13,971 bases of DNA from a virus (UHGV-1842250), one strand, 5' to 3'; counted from the first letter of the stretch, positions 1-11,391 are shown. Notes: generated by a model not told the origin, from the letters alone. Program-made: numbers and translations.

Positions 1-46
1 TTAACAGCTAACTCATAGCAAATCATTCCTATTCAGATACCAACTC

Positions 47-79
47 AACCCTCTGTTTTTGCAGAGGGTTTTTGTTTTT
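47..79 (+). terminator. Rho-independent terminator ending a transcript that enters from the left
   Basis: 9-bp perfect stem AACCCTCTG (47-55) / CAGAGGGTT (62-70), 6-nt loop, then T-tract TTTGTTTTT (71-79). The reverse strand has no U-tract, so it is unidirectional. Confidence 0.6.
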
Positions 80-135
80 ATGTATTCATTTCTATTCACT
101 CTACACCATATTTTTCGGCGGTACAGGTGACGGTA

Positions 136-150
136 TTACCTTAAAGGTAT
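136..150. promoter_or_regulatory. Operator-like site upstream of int (TTACCTTAAAGGTAT), nested in a larger inverted repeat
   Basis: Matches the window-wide TTACC-N5-GGTAA motif at 9 of 10 fixed positions. It contains the 13-bp perfect palindrome TACCTTAAAGGTA and is flanked by TGACGGTAT (129-137) / ATACCGTCA (158-166). It overlaps a candidate -10, TATACT (148-153), about 40 bp before the int start. Confidence 0.4.
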
Positions 151-192
151 ACTCTCATACCGTCATGAAAATGGTTTCTATACGGGTGAATT

Positions 193-1449
193 GTGCTTAC
201 CGATACAAAATTAAAAAACCTCAAGCCGCAGGACAAACTGTACAAGGTCTCCGATCGTGACGGGCTGTATGTAGCTGTGCTTACGTCAGGCACGGTCTCG
301 TTTCGCTATGACTACCGTATCAACGGTCGCCGCGAAACACTGGTAATCGGGCAGTATGGGCGTGACGGTATCAGCCTGGCAGAAGCGCGAGAAGAACTGA
401 TTGCTGCAAAGAAGCTGCTTAAAGCAGGCCAGTCGCCGGCTGCGGCTAAACGTGACGGTATCAAAAAGATTCGTGGTGCCGAGACGTTTGCGGTACATAC
501 CGACAGTTATATGAAACACGTCATCCTGGCTGACAGTACCCGCGCAATGAAGCAGGCGGTGATCGACCGTGACATACTTCCGGTTCTTGGCAACAAAATG
601 ATGGCTGAAATTACCACATCGATGGTTCGTGATTTGTGTGACCGGATTGTCGAACGCGGTGGTCGGGCAACAGCAGTACAGGCCAGGGAGATCATCAGCA
701 GCGTATACCGTCACGCCAATGACCGTGGTCATGGTTTGTTTAATCCTGCGGCTGACATTAAACCTTCGTCTATCGCCATATTTAAACCACGAGAGCGAAC
801 ACTGACACCAGAAGAAATTGGCCTGTTCTTCCGCACGCTGGATGCCATTTGTGCTATGGGCACTATGAAAATGGCTTTAAAGCTGGTGCTTATCACTATG
901 GTTCGTAAAGGCGAATTCACCAATGCAACGTGGGATGAAATAGATTTTAAAAAATGGACATGGACAATTCCTTCAGACCGCATGAAGGGAAGCCGGGCGC
1001 ACGTTATTTACCTGCCTAAACAGGCACAGGATATATTGGTTGGGTTGCAGATGTGCGCTGGTGGAAGTGAATATCTGGTTCCTGGTCGTTACAATTTCCG
1101 GAAGCCATTATCTAATGCCGCGCTGAACTCTCTGATCGACAGAACGGTGAAAATAATAAATGAAGATGGTGAGCATATTCAGGACTTCACCGTACACGAT
1201 ATGCGCCGTACAGCAAGTACGTTGTTGCATGAGGCTGGTTATCCTTCAGACTGGATTGAAAAGGCTCTGGCACATGAGCAGAAAGGTGTGCGCGCCGTAT
1301 ATAACAAAGCGGAATACGCCAGACAGCGCGCCTACATGTTGCAGCAGTGGGCCGATATGATTGATTCCTGGATTAACGGGGAGCATACGGATCTGATTCC
1401 GTTCTCCCCGTCGAAGTTTGAGAGGTGGATGGAAGACAGTAATAAATAA
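193..1449 (+). CDS. int: Tyrosine site-specific integrase, P4/IntS-like family
   Basis: 418-aa ORF with GTG start. The N-terminus (MLTDTKLKNLKP...DGLYVAV...G...RY) is typical of P4-type integrases, and the C-terminus has catalytic-region motifs (HDMRRTASTLLHEAGY ... YNKAEYARQR). Confidence 0.93.
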   Translation: MLTDTKLKNLKPQDKLYKVSDRDGLYVAVLTSGTVSFRYDYRINGRRETLVIGQYGRDGISLAEAREELIAAKKLLKAGQSPAAAKRDGIKKIRGAETFAVHTDSYMKHVILADSTRAMKQAVIDRDILPVLGNKMMAEITTSMVRDLCDRIVERGGRATAVQAREIISSVYRHANDRGHGLFNPAADIKPSSIAIFKPRERTLTPEEIGLFFRTLDAICAMGTMKMALKLVLITMVRKGEFTNATWDEIDFKKWTWTIPSDRMKGSRAHVIYLPKQAQDILVGLQMCAGGSEYLVPGRYNFRKPLSNAALNSLIDRTVKIINEDGEHIQDFTVHDMRRTASTLLHEAGYPSDWIEKALAHEQKGVRAVYNKAEYARQRAYMLQQWADMIDSWINGEHTDLIPFSPSKFERWMEDSNK

Positions 1450-1451
1450 TT

Positions 1452-2111
1452 CTATCCTTCCTGGACTTTGGTAAGCGTCAGATTTCCGCAGAACACTGCG
1501 CCGGTGTCGATGTACATCTGGTTTGCATACACCAGTGGGTGATGTGCTGGCGTATGACCGAAGATGAACAAATCGGCACCGGTTATCTCCGAGACAATAC
1601 CGTCCTGCGCGTCGCTAACCCGCTCACGATTCCATATCACCATTTCTTCTGGTACTTGCTTATCGAATGCGTATTCGTTGTGCGGGTAGTCTGCGTGACA
1701 GATGACGACCTTCTTATTGCCGGTAACCAGTTCGATAATCATCGGGAGGTTGGTAATCTTTGGCAGAAGGTATTTGAGTTGCACATCCTGCTCAGAATCA
1801 AGTTGGTGCCACCATCCACCGCCGTTTGACATCCAATGTCCGAAACTTCCGCCGTTGACCAGTGCATCCAGCATCATCTGCTCATGGTTGCCACGAACAG
1901 CTCGGAACCACGGCATAGTAATCAAATCCAGGCATTCGACGTTTTCAGCGCCGCGGTCAACAAGGTCACCAACGGAAATAAGTAAATCGCGCGCCGGGTC
2001 GAATGAAACTTTGTCGAGTTCGTTCATCAGCAGCGTGTAGCACCCATGCAGATCGCCGACGACGAAGATATTGCACCAGTCAGCGCCATTGATGCGTTGA
2101 TATAGGTTCAT
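1452..2111 (-). CDS. Ser/Thr protein phosphatase, lambda-PPase / PrpA-B family metallophosphoesterase
   Basis: The translation carries the metallophosphatase signature GDLHGCY ... GDLVDRG ... GNHE ... ICHADYP ... GHTP. Start refined to the ATG at 2111 ([12 protein letters not shown]), which overlaps the upstream stop as ATGA; the track's longer N-terminus runs into the upstream gene. Stop TAG at 1452-1454, 2 bp from the int stop. Confidence 0.93.
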
Positions 2112-2758
2112 GCTGCACGCTCCCGCCCCTGGTTGTCTATTGGTGACACCGGAGCATTGCTGAATGCATTTGTTAATCCGCCAATATCCAACGCGTATCC
2201 AGGGTGTAGTTGCACTGCCGGGTCTTCGCACTGATTACCCCAAACATCGAAGCCATGAGACGTCTGGCGGGCGAACAGTTCAATGCGAGAAACATCGCCT
2301 AACAATTGCACAAGTTTTTCACGAACGACATCTGGTTTTCTTGAATGCTCAAGCCGCGGTGCGGTAAATGACTGAACGATCCCTGCATTAATGCGTGGAG
2401 GTAGTTTTCCCTTTACTGCAAACAGGCAATCTTCACTATTGGCGCGAGTCATGTGTCCCATACCCATAACCAGTTTATCTGGTTGTCGACTACCACATTT
2501 TATCCACGTGAAGCCCTTCATCGTCATCAGACGAAATCCCCAGGCTTCAACAACTTTTAGTGCTTCGAGTGGTTGTGTTGGCACCCACCACATGGCCAAC
2601 AGACAGTTTTCAGCGGTCAAATCCCACACAGGAAGGCGGCAGATATCCAGCACACTCATAACTGGATATTTAAAACCGGCACCGCGATTACCATCTGCGG
2701 CTTTGTCCCGGTATACCCAGGGTGGATCTGCATAGATTAGTGTGTATTTCTTAGTCAT
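2108..2758 (-). CDS. MT-A70-family DNA N6-adenine methyltransferase
   Basis: N-terminus [16 protein letters not shown] contains the DPPW catalytic motif of MT-A70 / phage Dam-like methyltransferases. Start ATG at 2758 is preceded by a G-rich SD (GGGGTGG); the stop TGA overlaps the phosphatase ATG as ATGA. Confidence 0.88.
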
Positions 2759-3050
2759 AAACCACCCCACAACATCCTATGCCGCTATAGTCGCCACGGC
2801 GAAGGCCGTTACCTTTTGTGATACATTGGTCCCTGCGAACCGCGATCCTTGCACGTTCAACATCACCAGAAGCAACATCCATACACTGAAGCCAAAGGTG
2901 AGCGGCAATGCGGAATTGCCCTTTTTTCTCTCTTTCAATCGCGCGTTTTTCGATCTCTATCGCCGCAGGAGTAACGGCGACAATCTTTGAAGGGCTGCGC
3001 ATTGAAACCTTGTTCATGTGATATTTTTCAAGTCGGCTTAACTTTCTCAC
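2751..3050 (-). CDS. Hypothetical protein, function unknown
   Basis: Only sizeable ORF filling the 400-bp gap between the excisionase and methyltransferase genes on the operon strand. GTG at 3050 is preceded by GAGGG; alternative ATG starts at 3017 and 3002. Its 3' end overlaps the methyltransferase start by 8 nt. I recognise no family. Confidence 0.45.
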   Translation of the reverse strand: MRKLSRLEKYHMNKVSMRSPSKIVAVTPAAIEIEKRAIEREKKGQFRIAAHLWLQCMDVASGDVERARIAVRRDQCITKGNGLRRGDYSGIGCCGVVYD

Positions 3051-3159
3051 TTAATCCAACCCTCTCTGAAAATTAATGCCAGCAGATAAAGCCATGCTGA
3101 AACAGAGGCCAGGAATAAGTACCATCCTGACCATTTGCTCCAGTGCCTTAGCAGCGCAC

Positions 3160-3408
3160 TCATGCAGCGTTGCTCACAGGACGATATACACGTTGCTGAA
3201 CAGGAGGCTTTTTACCCTGGAACTCTGCCGGGCTTGCAGCCTGACGTTCATCAAGCCAACGCTCAACTTCGTCACGGTTCCATGCGCAGCGTTTGTCAGT
3301 GATATACCAGCGTTTAGGAAATTCCCCTGCGCGCTCCATACGGTCGATAGTGCTCCATGACAGTGGCACCACCGCCAGGAGTTCCTTCTTACCTAATGCA
3401 CCTTTCAT
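3160..3408 (-). CDS. AlpA/Vis-type excisionase or transcriptional regulator (small HTH protein)
   Basis: 82 aa with an AlpA-like motif (LLAVVPLSWSTIDRMERAGEFPKRWYITDKRCAWNRDEVERWL). SD GAGAGG sits 6 nt before the ATG at 3408. This type commonly partners P4-family integrases. Confidence 0.82.
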   Translation of the reverse strand: MKGALGKKELLAVVPLSWSTIDRMERAGEFPKRWYITDKRCAWNRDEVERWLDERQAASPAEFQGKKPPVQQRVYRPVSNAA

Positions 3409-3430
3409 AAATACCTCTCTTGGTTGCAGT

Positions 3431-3451
3431 GCGGCGCGCGTGGCGCCGCGG
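3431..3451 (-). other. GC-rich hairpin between the bet and excisionase genes, no U-tract
   Basis: GCGGCGC (3431-3437) pairs with GCGCCGC (3443-3449) around a 5-nt loop. No T-run follows on either strand, so it is not a canonical intrinsic terminator. Confidence 0.3.
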
Positions 3452-3457
3452 TGGTGG

Positions 3458-4399
3458 TTACATAGATGTTTCGTTTAATTCTTCTCGACGAACGCTGTAA
3501 ACGTCGGTGGCTTTTGCCAGCAGTTCGTCATCATCTGAAAGTTTTTGTGCAATGTATTTGTAAGCCTTATCCAGTTCGGAGACAGTGCTGTAATTCATCG
3601 CTGCGCTGGTAAAGGCCATCAGCATTTCTTCTGGATCACGGCTATCCGATTTACGCGTTTGCTCATCAGGCTTTTTCGCTGGTTTAGCGTTGATCAGACT
3701 GTTCATTCCCGCAGCAGTGGTCGTTTGCGGAGTAATGTCTCGCTCAACGCGCGGTGCCGTTTCCTGTAATTCGTCTGGGGTGTAGACGCCCATGATTACG
3801 TCAGGACAGTGCAGGCGAGACCAGCGTTTTGTCGCAAGGTATGCGAGTTGTTGTTTCGGATCACTGGCCCAAAGTGTGGAGTTTCTTACCTGTGCTTGAG
3901 ACAGCATTAACTCAAGCACTCGAGGTTGATCCTCGCCCTTCATGGTTGCCCATACGCGAACACCGCAGCCTTCTTCGTCTTTTAGAGTCCAGCCTGGTGC
4001 GATATATGGATTGCCGTTTTTGGATGTTTTCTCAACAAACTTACCGATCACGCGTTCCCACGGCCCAAACCACTCGTAGTTGATGCGATCTTTTGTTGGC
4101 GACATCGTTGAGATAACTGCGTTTACTAATTGGGCTTCATAACCTAGCGTGCCGTTCACAACATGGGTTTTCTGAGCCACGGCAAACGGGTTCATTCCCC
4201 ACTGCGCAGCCTGCATTGCCACGGCCATGCAATCAGCTGGTTTCCCGGCGAGGTGCGCCGGTACCGTTACGCGGCTTTGCGCCATTACCTCGGCGAATTT
4301 CATCAGTTGGTTCAAGCCGTCTGGGCTGAAAATAGTTGCAGCAGTTCCAGCGATTGCTGTGTCTACTGGTGCGTTGATGTTTGCGATGTCGTTGCTCAT
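3458..4399 (-). CDS. bet: Single-strand annealing protein, RecT/Red-beta (Bet) family
   Basis: 313 aa. The segment ETAPRVERDITPQ resembles the lambda Bet region ERQPERDITPV, and the gene sits directly downstream of an exonuclease gene as in the lambda exo-bet pair. Start ATG at 4399 has AGGA upstream and overlaps the exonuclease stop (ATGA). Confidence 0.85.
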   Translation of the reverse strand: MSNDIANINAPVDTAIAGTAATIFSPDGLNQLMKFAEVMAQSRVTVPAHLAGKPADCMAVAMQAAQWGMNPFAVAQKTHVVNGTLGYEAQLVNAVISTMSPTKDRINYEWFGPWERVIGKFVEKTSKNGNPYIAPGWTLKDEEGCGVRVWATMKGEDQPRVLELMLSQAQVRNSTLWASDPKQQLAYLATKRWSRLHCPDVIMGVYTPDELQETAPRVERDITPQTTTAAGMNSLINAKPAKKPDEQTRKSDSRDPEEMLMAFTSAAMNYSTVSELDKAYKYIAQKLSDDDELLAKATDVYSVRREELNETSM

Positions 4400-4926
4400 A
4401 TGTACATATCCTGTTTGCGTGCCCACTCAGGGCGTTTAATGATTTCCACACCGCCCCATTCATCATTGATGCGGCATTCGTGATAGGTATTCAGATCCCG
4501 GCGGAACAGAGCGTGCCCGGCATCGACATCCTGCGCATCCAGCTCGAACACGCGTACCGGATACCGACCACAATCAATGCTTTCGCTCACGGCAAGAAAG
4601 AAAAAACCATGCGGCTGACCAGTAACCCTCATTGCGCCTTCGCGGTACATTGCGTCCTGCACGTGGTAGCGGAATTCCTCGATGTGGCGTGCAAAACGGT
4701 CCATATCTGCAACCTTTTTCACGTCGACGATCACGTTGTGCTCGTTCAGCCATTTGTCTGGACGAATTCGGCACAACTCACCCGTCTCTTCATCGTTCCA
4801 GTACATTGATGCTTCGCAGTAACCAGGTGCTTCCAACATCCAGCGTGCCGCCGGATGAGCCATTGCGCTATCACGCATAAGCTCCAGTTTCCGCCACTGC
4901 TCGGCATCAAGTACCGTAATCACCAT
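4396..4926 (-). CDS. PD-(D/E)xK exonuclease, C-terminal part (gene interrupted by a frameshift)
   Basis: Contains the nuclease core motifs RIRPD ... VIVDVKKV. This reading frame is open from 5130 to 4396, but its first ~55 codons overlap the N-terminal fragment's frame and look non-coding; 4926 is the first internal ATG. The partner fragment is 4937..5212. Confidence 0.7.
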   Translation of the reverse strand: MVITVLDAEQWRKLELMRDSAMAHPAARWMLEAPGYCEASMYWNDEETGELCRIRPDKWLNEHNVIVDVKKVADMDRFARHIEEFRYHVQDAMYREGAMRVTGQPHGFFFLAVSESIDCGRYPVRVFELDAQDVDAGHALFRRDLNTYHECRINDEWGGVEIIKRPEWARKQDMYI

Positions 4927-4936
4927 ATCCGCCACA

Positions 4937-5212
4937 TCACGAAGCCTCTTCGTCAGCTTTACCTTGTTTCGTCCGACGATCGAATTTCGGTGAAACAATG
5001 AAGCGTTTGTCGAACTCTCCAGGCTCCAGAAGCAGACAGTGCAATGCGGTTCCCATATCCAGTGCAGACTTTTTCTCTTCGTCTTCTGGTGCTGCCTGAA
5101 CCCATTTAAGAAGCGCCGGATTCTTGGCAACCATGTCCAGTTGCGACTTACTCACGCCGTCACCGGCGTGGTAGTCTTCGTTGCTGATGTCGAAATAAAT
5201 TCCCGGTTTCAT
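4937..5212 (-). CDS. PD-(D/E)xK exonuclease, N-terminal part (ends at a premature stop after a probable frameshift)
   Basis: 91 aa beginning MKPGIYFDISNEDYHAGDGVSKSQL ... GTALHCLLLEPGEFDKRF, which looks like the N-terminal region of phage Cas4/RecB-like exonucleases. Good SD (GAGGGA) before the ATG at 5212. The frame stops at 4937 while a second frame continues the nuclease domain. Confidence 0.7.
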   Translation of the reverse strand: MKPGIYFDISNEDYHAGDGVSKSQLDMVAKNPALLKWVQAAPEDEEKKSALDMGTALHCLLLEPGEFDKRFIVSPKFDRRTKQGKADEEAS

Positions 5213-5508
5213 GCCGCGTCCCTCTGTCCATCAAGCTGATCCGCCAGATCCCAGCGGGCGATAATTGCCATTGCCTCGCGCCGGTAGGCATCCATAAGTT
5301 CTTCGAACTCAGGGCTGTCTTTAGCTGCCTCCAGCACTTCCTGGCGAACTCCTTTGCCTGTTACAGCGTCAAAAGTTGAGGCCAGTTGATGAAGCCGGAT
5401 GCTCTCGATCAGTTCAACTTGTCGGTCATATAACTGTTCTGACAGGCGGTAGTCCTTGTCGAATGCCAGCATGATTTTTTGAAGATTTTTCTGCTGATTA
5501 ACGTTCAT
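5209..5508 (-). CDS. Hypothetical early protein, function unknown
   Basis: 99 aa from the ATG at 5508 (MNVNQQKNLQK...), which has a strong SD (GGAGG, 8-nt spacing). The stop overlaps the exonuclease ATG (ATGA). It sits where lambda carries N, but is not arginine-rich, so not N-like. Confidence 0.6.
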   Translation of the reverse strand: MNVNQQKNLQKIMLAFDKDYRLSEQLYDRQVELIESIRLHQLASTFDAVTGKGVRQEVLEAAKDSPEFEELMDAYRREAMAIIARWDLADQLDGQRDAA

Positions 5509-5510
5509 TA

Positions 5511-5663
5511 TCAGCCCTCCCATATCTCGTTATCGTTGGCTACATCGCGAGCTTCTTTGCTGACGAAAGCCCACTTAATGCCTTCCTGTAAGGTGCGGAA
5601 CTTCCAGCTCATGAATCCGCATGCAGTAACGCAGTACCAACCGTTGATGATTTTCCACTGCAT
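5511..5663 (-). CDS. 50-aa micro-ORF, first gene of the leftward operon, possibly cIII-like
   Basis: Translated by hand as MQWKIINGWYCVTACGFMSWKFRTLQEGIKWAFVSKEARDVANDNEIWEG. It lies about 27 nt downstream of the predicted leftward promoter, has GAGG upstream, and stops 2 nt before the next start. Loose resemblance to lambda CIII (MQYAIAGW..AGC ... RKLRDGWKRLI). Too short for the ORF track. Confidence 0.35.
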   Translation of the reverse strand: MQWKIINGWYCVTACGFMSWKFRTLQEGIKWAFVSKEARDVANDNEIWEG

Positions 5664-5682
5664 AACTTGTTACCTCGGTCTG

Positions 5683-5697
5683 TTACCGTTGAGGTAA
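5683..5697. promoter_or_regulatory. Operator site, perfect palindrome TTACCGTTGAGGTAA, promoter-proximal in the leftward (PL-like) promoter
   Basis: Exact TTACC-N5-GGTAA. It abuts the candidate -10 of the leftward promoter, and an extra TTACC half-site sits at 5670-5674. Confidence 0.6.
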
Positions 5698-5725
5698 TAA
5701 TTATGCGTATATGGTTTGGTGTCAA
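5697..5725 (-). promoter_or_regulatory. Candidate leftward early promoter (PL analogue)
   Basis: On the minus strand: perfect -35 TTGACA (5725..5720), 17-bp spacer, -10 AATTAT (5702..5697). Flanked by operator sites at 5745-5759 and 5683-5697, the same layout as the promoter at 8778-8806. Confidence 0.5.
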
Positions 5726-5744
5726 TAGATATGAGTTAAAAAAA

Positions 5745-5759
5745 TTACCCGTTAGGTAA
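5745..5759. promoter_or_regulatory. Operator site, perfect palindrome TTACCCGTTAGGTAA, promoter-distal in the leftward promoter
   Basis: Exact TTACC-N5-GGTAA, centred 62 bp from the site at 5683-5697. Confidence 0.6.
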
Positions 5760-5772
5760 TCGAATAGGCAAT

Positions 5773-5795
5773 AAAAAAGCCGCCATAAGGCGGCT
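5773..5795 (-). terminator. Rho-independent terminator after the repressor gene
   Basis: On the minus strand, stem GCCGCC / GGCGGC with 4-nt loop followed by a U-tract (plus strand AAAAAAGCCGCCATAAGGCGGCT), about 20 bp after the repressor stop codon. Confidence 0.65.
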
Positions 5796-5816
5796 TACTT
5801 ACTGAAAAATATGATT

Positions 5817-6401
5817 TTATTGTTTGTTTTTTTCGTTCTGGTTGATGACAAATTCAATGTAACTTTCGATCTTTGCCTTCTCTGTTTCAGGTAACAATGC
5901 GTAGCGCGAGCGGTCATAGTTGATAGTTGCAGGGTCATGCGGATGAATCAGTAGTTCATATCCGTGACGCCCGAATGCAGATGCAACATTCTCCAGGGTG
6001 GAAATGGAAACGCTGACCTCATTGTTTAACAGGCGGCTTATTGTCACCTGGGCGACGCCGGATGCGCGGTGAAGTTTTCCCTGAGTTGAAAGGTCGCGGC
6101 TTTCACTCATCCAGCGTTCCAGGTTGTGAGCTGCCAGCTGACCAATGTCGCTTGGGCCGACAGGCTGAAAACCTTCCTGAGAAAGCGAGCGATCGATATC
6201 AAGCCAGTTACGGGGTTTATTGGCGGCAGCTTCAATTTTTCGCGCAACCTGGTCGCCGATAACTTTCTTGCCAAGAGCCCAGCGGTTTACCAGATTTGCC
6301 TGAGTTCCAAGTTTTTCTGCCATCCGCGTCTGAACACCATTGAATTCACGGTCGATCAAGTCGTTGAGATTTTGCCTGCGGACGTCCTGGATACTTTTCA
6401 T
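5817..6401 (-). CDS. Phage repressor (cI analogue) with two HTH domains and no recognisable LexA/S24 autocleavage domain
   Basis: 194 aa, divergent from the Cro-like gene across an operator-rich spacer. HTH-like segments QTRMAEKLGTQANLVNRW and ASGVAQVTISRLLNNEVSVSISTLENVA. No S24 peptidase serine-lysine dyad or Ala-Gly cleavage context seen. No SD before the ATG, so the transcript may be leaderless. Confidence 0.8.
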   Translation of the reverse strand: MKSIQDVRRQNLNDLIDREFNGVQTRMAEKLGTQANLVNRWALGKKVIGDQVARKIEAAANKPRNWLDIDRSLSQEGFQPVGPSDIGQLAAHNLERWMSESRDLSTQGKLHRASGVAQVTISRLLNNEVSVSISTLENVASAFGRHGYELLIHPHDPATINYDRSRYALLPETEKAKIESYIEFVINQNEKNKQ

Positions 6402-6456
6402 TTTCTGGAAAATCGCCTCATATATGAATCAGTAGATGATTCAATTTAAAGCAATA

Positions 6457-6519
6457 TTACCCAACAGGTAAATGCACCTCATAGGTAACTATCCTTGATT
6501 TTTGTTACCTTATGGGTGA
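6457..6519. promoter_or_regulatory. Immunity-region operator cluster of three sites between the repressor and cro-like genes, with divergent promoters
   Basis: Sites at 6457-6471 (TTACCCAACAGGTAA, perfect), 6474-6488 (GCACCTCATAGGTAA) and 6505-6519 (TTACCTTATGGGTGA). Candidate rightward promoter: -35 TTGATT (6494-6499) or TTGTTA (6502-6507), -10 TATTAT (6525-6530), overlapping the third site. Confidence 0.6.
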
Positions 6520-8823: not shown

Positions 8824-9168
8824 ATGAGAAAACAGATACAGGCTCTTGGTCGACTCAAAACAGGCCAGATGAACAAAACAGAATCTGCGTATTGCCAGCA
8901 CCTTGAGCAGCGTAAACGTGCAGGGGAAATCGCCTGGTATCGATTCGAGGGTATCAAGTTGCGGTTAGCTGACAACACGTTCTATACGCCCGATTTTGCT
9001 GTGATGCTCGCCACCGGCGAGATGGAACTGCACGAAGTGAAAGGTTTCTGGACCGACGACGCCAGGGTGAAAACCAAAGTCGCCGCAGATCAGTATCCGT
9101 TCCGAATCATCGGGGTAACGGTTAAGCCAAAGAAAGCAGGTGGTGGCTGGAACATCGAAGAGTTCTGA
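8824..9168 (+). CDS. DUF1064-like phage protein with PD-(D/E)xK-like nuclease motifs
   Basis: 114 aa with YTPDF ... HEVKG, consistent with a D ... ExK nuclease core. Family name is from memory. Confidence 0.7.
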   Translation: MRKQIQALGRLKTGQMNKTESAYCQHLEQRKRAGEIAWYRFEGIKLRLADNTFYTPDFAVMLATGEMELHEVKGFWTDDARVKTKVAADQYPFRIIGVTVKPKKAGGGWNIEEF

Positions 9169-9229: not shown

Positions 9230-9724
9230 ATGGAAAGTAATATCAAAGGGTTAGTTGCCGCCGGGCATGAGATGGCTTCGGAACTGAAAGCAGAATGTGG
9301 TGCCGTTGATATGCGCAGTGTGGCAAAGCTGATCAGCGATTTGGCAGCGCAACTGGAAGTGCAACTGGTGCGTGCTAATGCGCTGGCCGAAGACCACCAG
9401 AGAGCGATTGAGTCAATTAAGCAGGCTGATTCGGCTGTTAAGTTGGCACACGAGAAGTTTTCGGCGCTGGCGGCGGAGAATGCGGGGCTGAACAAGTTCA
9501 TCAAAGATGATTGCTGGATTTGGGATGACAAAAGTGAAGAGTATTTCGACGCTGCTGACTGTATGCCAGAAACCCCAGCCACCGACGCCTCCCTTGCTGA
9601 AGTGCGGGCGCAGGGTGTGGAAGCATTCGCCAATAGCCTGAAGGTTGCCGGTGGTCATGAACATCCATATTCAGCGGTAGCCAACGAGTTCGCCGACCAG
9701 CTTCGCAAAGGAGGCAACCAGTGA
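9230..9724 (+). CDS. Hypothetical coiled-coil protein, possibly ead/Ea22-like
   Basis: 164 aa, SD GAGGG before the ATG, predicted helical N-terminus. The family assignment is tentative recall, not verified. Confidence 0.55.
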   Translation: MESNIKGLVAAGHEMASELKAECGAVDMRSVAKLISDLAAQLEVQLVRANALAEDHQRAIESIKQADSAVKLAHEKFSALAAENAGLNKFIKDDCWIWDDKSEEYFDAADCMPETPATDASLAEVRAQGVEAFANSLKVAGGHEHPYSAVANEFADQLRKGGNQ

Positions 9725-10353
9725 GCGAAATTAATTACCAGGCACTGCGTGAGGCGGCGGAACGTGCAATTCCAGCAATGGAACGCCTGTTAATGTTGCC
9801 AGTTGATGATGATCTGATAAGCGAACAGGAACTTAAAGATTACGGCGTGGATATTGATGCGCTCAACGCCTTCAAATTTCTGACCGGACCAGAAACCGTG
9901 CTGGCGCCGCTGGATGAACGGGAAAGAAACCAGCAATACATCAAATCCCGCGACCAGGAGAACGAGGAAATTGCGCTAACGGTTGGGAAGCTGCGTGTTG
10001 AGCTGGAAGCAGCAGAATCAAAACTCAACGAGCAGCGTGAGTATTACGAAGGTGTTATCTCGGATGGAAGTAAGCGCATAGCAGAACTGGAAGCGCGGGA
10101 AATAAAACCAGCCAAAGGTGAAGTTCTGGTCGTTGTATCTGGTTTTACTGGTTGCGGAAAAAGCGCCATTGCCGGGGAAATAGAAATCGCGATGAAGGCT
10201 ATTGGTGTACCGGTTAAGTGGACTAATGGCGATGCAGAAAAGCGCATGACTGGCGCTGACTGGCTGACTGCGATTGAGATGTACAAACCAACTGTGCGCA
10301 TCGTGGAAGTTAATGTGCCACGCGCCGCTGGCATTCGCATCAAAGGAGAGTGA
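9721..10353 (+). CDS. Hypothetical coiled-coil protein, possibly ead/Ea22-like
   Basis: 210 aa from a GTG start that overlaps the previous stop (GTGA), with AGGAGG upstream. N-terminus MSEINYQALREAAERA, a glutamate-rich coiled-coil centre, and a GCGKS-containing C-terminus. Confidence 0.55.
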   Translation: MSEINYQALREAAERAIPAMERLLMLPVDDDLISEQELKDYGVDIDALNAFKFLTGPETVLAPLDERERNQQYIKSRDQENEEIALTVGKLRVELEAAESKLNEQREYYEGVISDGSKRIAELEAREIKPAKGEVLVVVSGFTGCGKSAIAGEIEIAMKAIGVPVKWTNGDAEKRMTGADWLTAIEMYKPTVRIVEVNVPRAAGIRIKGE

Positions 10354-10548: not shown

Positions 10549-11391
10549 ATGACCACTATTACCAAAGAACGTATCGAATTATTCATTAAAAATCCGCTTG
10601 ATAACGGGCTTACTCGTGGCGAACAAATGGAACTGGCACGAATTGCACTGGCATCACTGGAACGCGAACTGATTCGCCACGAGCATGCCAAATGGTCTGA
10701 CTCCACATTTGGCTGCGTTGGCCCCATTGGTCCACTGAAACACCTCTCAAAAGAGGCTCTGGAAGCCGCAGCCGAACCAGACGATCTCAGCGAGTGGGCT
10801 GATATGCATTTCCTGTTGTGGGATGCACAGCGCCGTGCTGGCATCAGCGATGCTGAAATTACCGCTGCTATGGAAGATAAATTGAAGATCAACATGGAGC
10901 GCCAGTGGCCTGAACCAAAAGATGGTGAGCCTCGCTTGCACATTAAAGAACCCGGCAACTCTCCGGTAATTCCGGATGGTTTATCCACGGTATGCGCTGA
11001 GGCTTATCAGGTTGTAGGAGTTATGGCAGATGCGCTTGGTGTATTCGGTGATGCAGCAGTACAGAAAGTTCTGGATAACCTGTCACAGCAAAAACTTGTT
11101 CACAGAGATGTGCTGCCGTTCTCGCTTCCGGTAACTCCGGATGGTTGGGTTATGGTGCCGAAGAAACTAACCGCTGAGAACGGCGCTAAGGGTGTGCTAT
11201 CCGGTGAATTTTCAGAAACTACGTTTATAAGCTGCCCGGAATGCTTTGGCGATGATGATTGCGATACCTGTGACGGGAGCGGACGAATTGAAATTAAAGT
11301 ACCAGTCACGTGGACGACCATAAAATCCATTTGGGATAAAGGTATTGCGCATTTTGCAGCAAAACCGCCGCAGGAGGTTAACCGTGGCTAA
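10549..11391 (+). CDS. MazG-like nucleotide pyrophosphohydrolase domain protein (DUF550-like) with C-terminal Cys-rich Zn-ribbon
   Basis: 280 aa. The N-terminal helical segment (GEQMELARIALASLERELIRHEHAKW ... EWADMHFLLWD) resembles the MazG/DUF550 all-alpha NTP-pyrophosphatase fold. C-terminal CPECFGDDDCDTCDGSG is a metal-binding knuckle. Starts 2 nt after the previous stop. Confidence 0.55.
   Translation: MTTITKERIELFIKNPLDNGLTRGEQMELARIALASLERELIRHEHAKWSDSTFGCVGPIGPLKHLSKEALEAAAEPDDLSEWADMHFLLWDAQRRAGISDAEITAAMEDKLKINMERQWPEPKDGEPRLHIKEPGNSPVIPDGLSTVCAEAYQVVGVMADALGVFGDAAVQKVLDNLSQQKLVHRDVLPFSLPVTPDGWVMVPKKLTAENGAKGVLSGEFSETTFISCPECFGDDDCDTCDGSGRIEIKVPVTWTTIKSIWDKGIAHFAAKPPQEVNRG

Follow-up and report, generated by a model that had tools for sequence, protein, structure and literature searches.

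The stretch of DNA analysed here, referred to as the window, comprises 13,971 nucleotides from the virus UHGV-1842250, and we were concerned with the interval 1449-3050, in which the last three genes of a leftward operon meet the integrase gene int, which is transcribed towards them. These three genes encode a PerC-family protein, an MT-A70 methyltransferase and a serine/threonine phosphatase of the type of lambda NinI. The window is 98-99% identical in nucleotide sequence to phiV10 and PAS61 and about 80% identical to epsilon15 and Tyrion, and its gene order is the one common to those phages: int, a cargo gene, the methyltransferase, PerC, a small open reading frame (ORF), AlpA, RecT, a nuclease, the repressor, a DnaT-like gene and a P-like gene. 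By this comparison, the window is a temperate podophage or prophage of the phiV10/epsilon15 type, genus Uetakevirus, and its start lies in sequence that is common to free phiV10 DNA and to the prophage. Of 5426 complete E. coli genomes, 142 contain the 2151 bases around the operon end at about 99% identity, with the element located beside guaA, and the deposited phages vB_EcoP_PAS61 (OQ921333) and BP9 contain them as well. The annotations that exist there name an integrase, a serine/threonine phosphatase, an MT-A70 methyltransferase, a PerC-family regulator and an AlpA-type regulator.

The overlapping genes of the operon tail

The genes from int to the head of the operon tail are arranged as follows.

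193-1449, plus strand: int, encoding a P4-type tyrosine integrase of 418 amino acids, convergent with the left operon; stop codon TAA at 1447-1449
1450-1451: 2 bp separating the two convergent stops, TAA (int) and TAG (phosphatase gene)
1452-2111, minus strand: phosphatase gene, 219 amino acids, the last gene of the operon; ATG at 2111-2109, stop codon TAG at 1454-1452
2108-2758, minus strand: MT-A70 methyltransferase gene, 216 amino acids; start ATG at 2758, stop codon TGA at 2110-2108
2751-3050, minus strand: PerC-family gene, 99 amino acids; start GTG at 3050, stop codon TAA at 2753-2751
3047-3163, minus strand: gene for a hydrophobic peptide of 38 amino acids; phrog_17484 'membrane protein', E 3e-27
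3160-3408, minus strand: AlpA-type excisionase/regulator gene, which heads the overlap chain; Pfam Phage_AlpA, phrog_66 'excisionase and transcriptional regulator'

The int product matched Pfam Phage_integrase, Arm-DNA-bind_3 and Phage_int_M. On the opposite strand, the genes are chained in the order AlpA-like - ATGA - 38-residue peptide - GTGA - PerC-like - ATGACTAA - methyltransferase - ATGA - phosphatase. The TGA of the methyltransferase gene and the ATG of the phosphatase gene share the ATGA at 2108-2111, and the TAA of the PerC-like gene and the ATG of the methyltransferase gene overlap in the 8 nucleotides ATGACTAA at 2751-2758. An earlier note on this DNA had described these two overlaps, and both of them, as well as all of its coordinates, were found to be correct when the sequence was reread; the chain, which comprises five genes, extends two genes further upstream than that note had described. 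For the starts of the phosphatase, methyltransferase and PerC-like genes, the Shine-Dalgarno pairing energies lie between -7.0 and -7.4 kcal/mol, and for the start of the 38-residue peptide the pairing is weak (-1.9 kcal/mol). Judged by the overlaps of start and stop codons and by ribosome-binding sites that lie within the upstream gene, the chained genes are predicted to form a translationally coupled operon tail. The 38-residue peptide (MSALLRHWSKWSGWYLFLASVSAWLYLLALIFREGWIK) is conserved, with phiV10p35 and epsilon15 gp32 as its equivalents.

The three last ORFs are to be read as genuine genes rather than chance ORFs, because the Pfam scores of the phosphatase, the methyltransferase and the PerC-like protein exceed the curated cut-offs, because the full-length copies in the IMG/VR loci are all intact (22 of 22, 63 of 63 and 41 of 41 for the three genes, identical sequences being counted once), and because the ratios of nonsynonymous to synonymous polymorphism (pN/pS), estimated by counting polymorphisms over the same loci, are 0.29, 0.19 and 0.20, with 0.29 for the phosphatase. 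Ratios of this size indicate that purifying selection acts on all three genes.

Upstream of the chained genes, the operon contains RecT, a PD-(D/E)XK nuclease gene and two small genes, followed by a terminator and the repressor gene, and beyond the repressor lie, rightward, the DnaT-like and lambda-P-like replication genes. The signals that bear on transcription of the operon are the following.

5697-5725, minus strand: sigma-70-like promoter, the sole strong match in 1-6500 and likely the early-left promoter; it lies downstream of both the terminator and the repressor gene
5777-5796: terminator of the repressor gene
5817-6401: repressor gene

In a consensus scan, no terminator-like site was found on the minus strand between this promoter and 1452. 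Because there is one promoter-like site and no minus-strand terminator-like site before 1452, we infer that the three genes are the distal end of a single early-left transcription unit.

The exchangeable last slot

Comparison with relatives that carry other genes beside int delimits one further feature.

1433-2107, minus strand: exchangeable cargo segment; homology to relatives with other cargo ends at both borders

At the upstream border, the 3' end of the methyltransferase gene is common to all cargo types up to ...GCAGCATGA, and the sequences diverge from the next base. At the int side, the shared sequence extends up to ...GTGGATGG, which lies within the last codons of int, so that the last six int codons (from 1433) and the stop codon belong to the swapped segment, and the integrase ends in ...FERWMEDSNK when the phosphatase is present and in ...FEKWMAGE in the DUF1382 and Ant variants. 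Since divergence starts right after the ATG of the ATGA, every cargo uses the same ATG and the same upstream GGGAG. The alignments show that whichever cargo is inserted takes its ribosome-binding site and start codon from the 3' end of the methyltransferase gene.

In 80 IMG/VR loci carrying the methyltransferase, the spacer between the methyltransferase gene and int was used to define the slot classes.

188 bp, 35 loci: DUF1382
658 bp, 30 loci: phosphatase
about 1250 bp, 4 loci: a protein of 82 amino acids and an AntA-type antirepressor

About 373 of the 5426 complete E. coli genomes have the DUF1382 junction, and 142 have the phosphatase. A second insertion point lies between the PerC and methyltransferase genes, where a DndB-like (DGQHR) gene is fitted in through 4-nt overlaps (2483-3550 in locus L087 and 1937-3004 in locus L085). 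This gene is carried by some E. coli prophages and by Salmonella phage SPC32N, with no other dnd genes nearby, and among the related-locus proteins tested with PADLOC the DndB-like protein was matched and DUF1382 and the Ant-type pair were not. No phiV10-type E. coli relative examined lacked either the PerC-family or the MT-A70 gene.

The earlier note had presented the three genes as one coupled cassette. As a unit, this cassette does not hold, since the last slot can be filled in at least three ways, of which the phosphatase, with fewer than half as many genomes as DUF1382, is one, and since the DndB-like gene can part PerC from the methyltransferase. Taken together, these comparisons make it highly probable that the Uetakevirus early-left operon has its promoter-distal end in this interval, with a swappable last slot that abuts the convergent int gene.

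Convergence of the operon with int

The earlier note had also stated that the int and phosphatase stop codons are only 2 bp apart with no terminator between them, and both the reading of the sequence and the terminator scan bear this out. The scan gave no terminator near the junction, and its eight matches compare with 6.5 expected by chance; a plus-strand terminator-like site at 2904-2920 has ordinary folding (z -0.4). With 2 bases between the stop codons, the terminator of each transcript must lie inside the other gene. The further claim that the two transcripts overlap as antisense RNAs therefore stands as a matter of geometry, in that the 3' ends must overlap if both genes are transcribed, whereas a special regulatory role for this overlap is weighed against by the evidence given below. 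On both read-through RNAs, C-rich and G-poor stretches (a heuristic criterion only) occur within a few hundred bases, which fits Rho-dependent termination of untranslated antisense RNA.

The distance between the two stop codons differs among relatives, with 3 bp in phiV10, a 4-nt overlap in SPC32N and a gap of 154 bp in epsilon15. Tight int convergence is seen in three of the four related phages examined; in a Stx (Shiga toxin) phage, int and xis converge with a 17-nt overlap. By these comparisons, tight convergence is not particular to the phosphatase cassette and arises from cargo swaps. In addition, one strong secondary structure is predicted close to the junction.

1375-1412, minus strand: hairpin inside the 3' end of int, in the RNA of the left operon, 40-77 nt beyond the stop codon of the phosphatase gene

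Its free energy is -22.8 kcal/mol (z -3.2; none of 200 shuffled sequences was as stable), and no U tract follows it. The outer stem of 9 bp is invariant in phiV10, epsilon15 and SPC32N, and the inner stem is out of register. The hairpin may mark, protect or process the 3' end of the operon transcript, or it may be incidental.

In phage lambda, sib is an RNase III hairpin downstream of int and in the same orientation, which is completed only in transcripts that read through from PL. By analogy, the stop-to-stop arrangement could be a selected antisense device, in which transcripts reading from the early-left operon into int, or in the opposite sense, down-regulate the integrase or the cargo. 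Such a device would account for the lack of space for a terminator at the junction, for convergence that stays tight as cargo and host vary (2 bp, 3 bp and a 4-nt overlap), for the strong hairpin with its conserved outer stem in the int antisense RNA, and for the putative RNase III sites that the epsilon15 authors annotated around int. However, it is the cargo swaps that create the junction, rewriting the last int codons, and the spacing looks like a by-product of them; in epsilon15, the gap is wide. The hairpin lies in coding sequence, its invariant stem offers no covariation and its inner stem is out of register, and folding at the junction itself is no different from that of shuffled sequences on either strand (z -1.1 and -0.5). 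No known regulatory or antisense RNA was recovered when the whole window was scanned against Rfam at E values up to 1. Moreover, the operon-encoded AlpA/Xis-like protein and Int are both required for excision, and strong mutual interference between the two transcripts would counter that. We therefore regard a selected antisense device as unlikely. Retroregulation of the lambda sib type in particular does not fit, since int is here convergent with the early-left operon, the junction folds ordinarily and the strong hairpin is inside int. The Rfam scan also returned a RyhB-like hit at 5771-5829 on the minus strand (25 bits against a gathering threshold of 55, E 0.47), which falls on the terminator of the repressor gene and is almost certainly due to chance.

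Products of the operon tail and comparison with known systems

The product of 99 amino acids, which the earlier note had listed as an unknown, was identified as a PerC-family small regulator, since it scores 30.1 bits against Pfam PerC (PF06069; cut-off 22.6, E 6e-7) over residues 35-80. It is also matched by phrog_868 'transcriptional activator' over residues 1-99 of 99, and a PerC-family annotation of this gene is already present in RefSeq and in phiV10. The ANR (AraC negative regulator) family was considered and rejected, its model NF033650 giving 23.6 bits, under the cut-off of 32, which is a weak resemblance. As for the start of the gene, the Shine-Dalgarno pairing is -7.0 kcal/mol at the GTG at 3050, compared to 0 and -3.3 kcal/mol at the internal ATG codons, and the N-terminus of the 99-residue form has a conserved counterpart in epsilon15 gp31, whose ATG start falls at the equivalent position. 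Shorter forms have been called elsewhere (83 amino acids by RefSeq/PGAP and 88 in phiV10). Because it has the sole good ribosome-binding site, the GTGA coupling and an ATG-initiated homologue in epsilon15, the GTG start is favoured, and the RefSeq call of 83 amino acids is probably too short. The PerC family comprises small activators or counter-silencers in enteropathogenic E. coli (EPEC) and enterohaemorrhagic E. coli (EHEC), and by analogy the protein encoded here is likely a small transcriptional activator or counter-silencer.

The identities that had been proposed for the phosphatase and the methyltransferase proved right by the Pfam, 1G5B and phrog matches. The phosphatase aligns with PDB 1G5B over residues 1-217 (E 1e-98) with 144 of 217 residues identical (66%), keeps all nine catalytic and ligand residues (D20, H22, D49, R53, N75, H76, H139, R162 and H186) and has the GDxHG, GDxVDRG and GNHE motifs; it scores 57.9 bits against Pfam Metallophos (cut-off 21.5) and matches phrog_246 (NinI-like) with E 2e-107. 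By homology, it is an intact, full-length orthologue of lambda NinI, a Ser/Thr(/Tyr) phosphatase of the PPP family. No equivalog-level match was found for it in NCBIfam, and PADLOC gave no match for the phosphatase, the PerC-like protein or the 38-residue peptide. Two other identities were rejected: the matches to ApaH are restricted to residues 15-84, the N-terminal motif region, and a copy of a host enzyme is not indicated, as the NCBIfam models for PrpA and PrpB score under their cut-offs.

The nearest DNA to the phosphatase gene outside the phage group is ninI of phi80 and HK225, with 78% identity, where it adjoins ninE. In the Klebsiella phage vB_KpnP_BUCT711 (locus L088), which is a Uetakevirus, a NinI-like metallophosphoesterase gene is located at 4477-5139 in the early-right operon, just upstream of a replication gene, and since this is another site, such phosphatases have entered the genus at least twice. 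Its distribution marks the phosphatase gene as an early accessory gene, mobile and dispensable, that came to occupy the last slot. Kinase-kinase-phosphatase (KKP) defence modules occur in E. coli prophages (PMC11341870), and for this reason a role of the phage phosphatase against kinase-based defence is plausible, although the phosphatase of those modules is of the PP2C type. One step beyond this, the slot could be a pre-wired dock for swapping counter-defence or host-takeover genes, in which the phosphatase would neutralise kinase-based abortive infection such as that of KKP. We give this idea little credence, and if it were true it would provide the lambda phosphatase, a standard laboratory reagent, with its missing biological role.

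The methyltransferase scores 78.3 bits against PF05063 (MT-A70; cut-off 23.9), with residues 5-176 aligned to positions 1-172 of 172 of the profile, and it has the catalytic motif DPPW at residues 12-15 (YADPPW at 10-15), near the N-terminus; a PADLOC Type II MTase profile matches it with E 5e-78. By these matches it is an N6-adenine methyltransferase of the MT-A70 family (beta class). Its neighbours are the PerC-family gene and the phosphatase gene, and no cognate restriction endonuclease gene adjoins it, so it is an orphan methyltransferase; a Type II restriction-modification system was rejected because an endonuclease gene beside the methyltransferase gene is not present.

The three genes could also be a co-selected anti-defence cassette that combines anti-restriction with anti-kinase activity. 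They are translationally coupled and under purifying selection, the orphan methyltransferase matches Type II MTase profiles, and a phage phosphatase of broad specificity could in principle oppose the KKP modules of E. coli prophages (PMC11341870). The composition of the operon end argues otherwise: the phosphatase is present in about a quarter of the phiV10-type prophages, while most have DUF1382 and some the AntA-type pair at the identical junction; a DndB-like gene can intervene between PerC and the methyltransferase; Stx phages have the methyltransferase without PerC; and NinI-type genes occupy other operons in other phages. The coupling belongs to the whole operon tail and not to the trio, and neither the phosphatase nor the PerC-like protein is matched by PADLOC. 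Co-selection of the three as such a cassette is thus improbable, and the anti-restriction and anti-phosphosignalling roles that the earlier note had proposed are no more than reasonable guesses. The best-matching homologue of the methyltransferase that has been studied is reported to work chiefly on 16S rRNA and to increase spontaneous induction, and not to be an anti-restriction enzyme (PMC10810198).

Over residues 1-187, the methyltransferase is identical at 156 of 187 positions (83%) to gp5 of the Stx2a phage PA8 (M.EcoPA8orf6770P), and past residue 187 the two proteins diverge completely. M.EcoPA8orf6770P reportedly has little activity alone, co-purifies 1:1 with PNB-2, the product of the overlapping upstream gene, and as a holoenzyme with PNB-2 prefers 16S rRNA and raises spontaneous prophage induction; its C-terminal tail was proposed by the authors to be the contact for PNB-2 (Gong, Chakraborty and Koudelka, NAR 2023, PMC10810198). 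A close relative, M.EcoGV, is said to methylate GATC when overproduced (PMC10810198), and its GATC specificity is also listed in PMC6602927, both being second-hand statements. The C-terminal 29 amino acids of the methyltransferase encoded here are specific to E. coli Uetakeviruses, and the corresponding tail is 5-10 residues long in epsilon15 and SPC32N. Neither PNB-2 nor PNB-1 gave a detectable BLASTP alignment with the PerC-like protein, and tblastn found no match to PNB-2 or PNB-1 anywhere in the window or in related Uetakevirus loci. The PerC-like protein was accordingly rejected as a homologue of PNB-2.

These results bear on whether the PerC-type protein and the methyltransferase could be the two subunits of an RNA methyltransferase that, like PNB-2/M.EcoPA8orf6770P, tunes induction through methylation of rRNA, with the PerC-type protein as an alternative targeting subunit. 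The identity to the studied PA8 enzyme is high, the architecture is the same in that the gene of a small basic protein overlaps the methyltransferase start, and a partner is commonly required by MT-A70 enzymes (PMC10810198, PMC7544214). However, the supposed partners are dissimilar and the C-terminus that would make the contact differs, as it does in the short-tailed relatives; in addition, the DndB-like gene breaks the adjacency in some relatives, and the PerC family has a regulatory function of its own. Positive support comes from gene order alone, and a two-subunit enzyme of this kind is very doubtful.

Finally, the phosphatase is quite unlikely to be a lysogenic-conversion gene ('moron') that is expressed from the repressed prophage and alters host signalling or virulence: its variable position beside int is a common location of morons and its carriers include avian pathogenic (APEC), Shiga toxin-producing (STEC) and clinical isolates, but it lacks both a promoter and a terminator of its own, the upstream gene contains its ribosome-binding site and start codon, and nothing comparable is visible here to the stationary-phase promoter that the methyltransferase/PNB-2 pair of Stx phages reportedly has (PMC10810198).

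We return to the interval as the end of the early-left operon with a swappable last slot. As this reading has it, infection or induction would derepress the early-left promoter near 5700, and translation of the five overlapping genes as a chain would follow; with no internal promoter or terminator detectable, the five should be made together and only under those conditions. The AlpA-type protein would serve excision and regulation, and the PerC-type protein would act as the small activator or counter-silencer. The methyltransferase would likely add N6-methyladenine (m6A) to replicating phage DNA, with GATC as the site suggested by M.EcoGV, and it may also be active on 16S rRNA, as is its Stx-phage homologue. 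The phosphatase would likely strip phosphates from proteins of the host or of defence systems at an early point of the lytic programme. The operon and int transcripts would each end inside the other gene, probably through Rho, with overlapping 3' ends.

Several points weigh against this reading. The promoter scan was a crude consensus scan, and a weak internal promoter that expresses the cargo in the lysogen is possible. Since PNB-2 is absent and the C-terminus is different, the rRNA activity of the PA8 type may not carry over. An IS66-type insertion interrupts the phosphatase gene after codon 143 in one IMG/VR relative (L031, 5648-8014), so the gene is dispensable for carriage or maintenance of the prophage. 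NinI is counted among the poorly understood proteins of lambda (PMC3224144), and our literature search found no study on the biological role of NinI or on Uetakevirus phosphatases. What is said of the functions of the operon-tail genes derives wholly from homology.

Other differences from the relatives were observed elsewhere in the window. Relative to phiV10, the PD-(D/E)XK nuclease gene (4396-5212, minus strand) has lost 5 bp at about 4943 and is thereby broken into an N-terminal ORF of 91 amino acids at 4937-5212 and an out-of-frame remainder at 4396-5130. At 4413, a 1-nt difference separates the single 'RecE-RecT fusion' of phiV10 from the separate RecT found here and in other relatives. 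Between the RecT and AlpA-type genes, a GC-rich hairpin (GCGGCGC...GCGCCGC, 3416-3434, minus strand) is not significantly stable compared to shuffled sequences (z -0.9), and at the matching place a 'transcriptional pausing' stem-loop is annotated in epsilon15. Three further genes were noted, the first two of them early-right accessory genes.

8824-9168: gene of a DUF1064 protein
9721-10353, plus strand: Ead/Ea22-like gene
10549-11391, plus strand: gene of the PF04447 dATP/dGTP pyrophosphohydrolase family

The region belongs to a widespread prophage, is ordinary and has been annotated before, and the same genes, in the same order and under the same names, are in RefSeq for the 142 complete E. 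coli genomes as well as in the two phage genomes. The present analysis adds the PerC identity, a chain of overlaps longer than had been described, the exchangeable slot and the exact position of its borders, and both the link and the difference between the methyltransferase and the PA8 enzyme. The picture of a three-gene cassette with an unknown is thereby revised: the first gene encodes a PerC-type regulator, the MT-A70 enzyme is an orphan, and the last gene is swappable. As the phosphatase, DUF1382 and Ant occupy one slot, these natural isogenic contrasts would be suited to testing what a NinI-type phosphatase does for a phage.

Among the closest relatives, PAS61, BP9 and prophages such as those in E. 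coli APEC O1 (NC_008563) and 13E0780 have the identical order int - phosphatase - MT-A70 - PerC - AlpA, whereas in phiV10 (NC_007804) a DUF1382 gene of 64 amino acids replaces the phosphatase and int is 2 amino acids shorter at its end. In comparison with PerC of EPEC and the Pch proteins of EHEC prophages (PF06069), the Uetakevirus protein is likewise small, basic and prophage-borne; its family match, however, covers only residues 35-80, and this protein has no known link to LEE, the enterocyte-effacement locus, or to ler. The PA8 system resembles the operon tail in the DPPW site, in a small overlapping upstream gene (the overlap is 4 nt in PA8 and 8 nt here) and in a distance of a few genes from int, and its methyltransferase is followed by DUF1382, as in many phiV10-type relatives. 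It differs in its upstream partner, which is PNB-2 (143 amino acids) in PA8 and an unrelated PerC-family protein (99 amino acids) here, and in the C-terminal tail of the methyltransferase.

The NinI protein of lambda (orf221) is the Mn-dependent lambda protein phosphatase, to which the phosphatase described here is 66% identical over the full length. In lambda and other lambdoid phages, ninI is a neighbour of ninE in the nin region, within the rightward operon, whereas in this phage the ninI-type gene ends the leftward operon, is coupled to the methyltransferase gene and abuts int. The last slot itself is comparable to the mosaic junctions and accessory slots of temperate phages, such as the exo-xis and nin regions of lambda and the moron slots, in which unrelated genes are swapped at gene borders, and the cargo families DUF1382, NinI and AntA are also found in lambdoid or Stx phages. 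In contrast to those mosaics, the slot described here has the shared ATGA overlap as its upstream border and a downstream border that lies inside the coding sequence of int.

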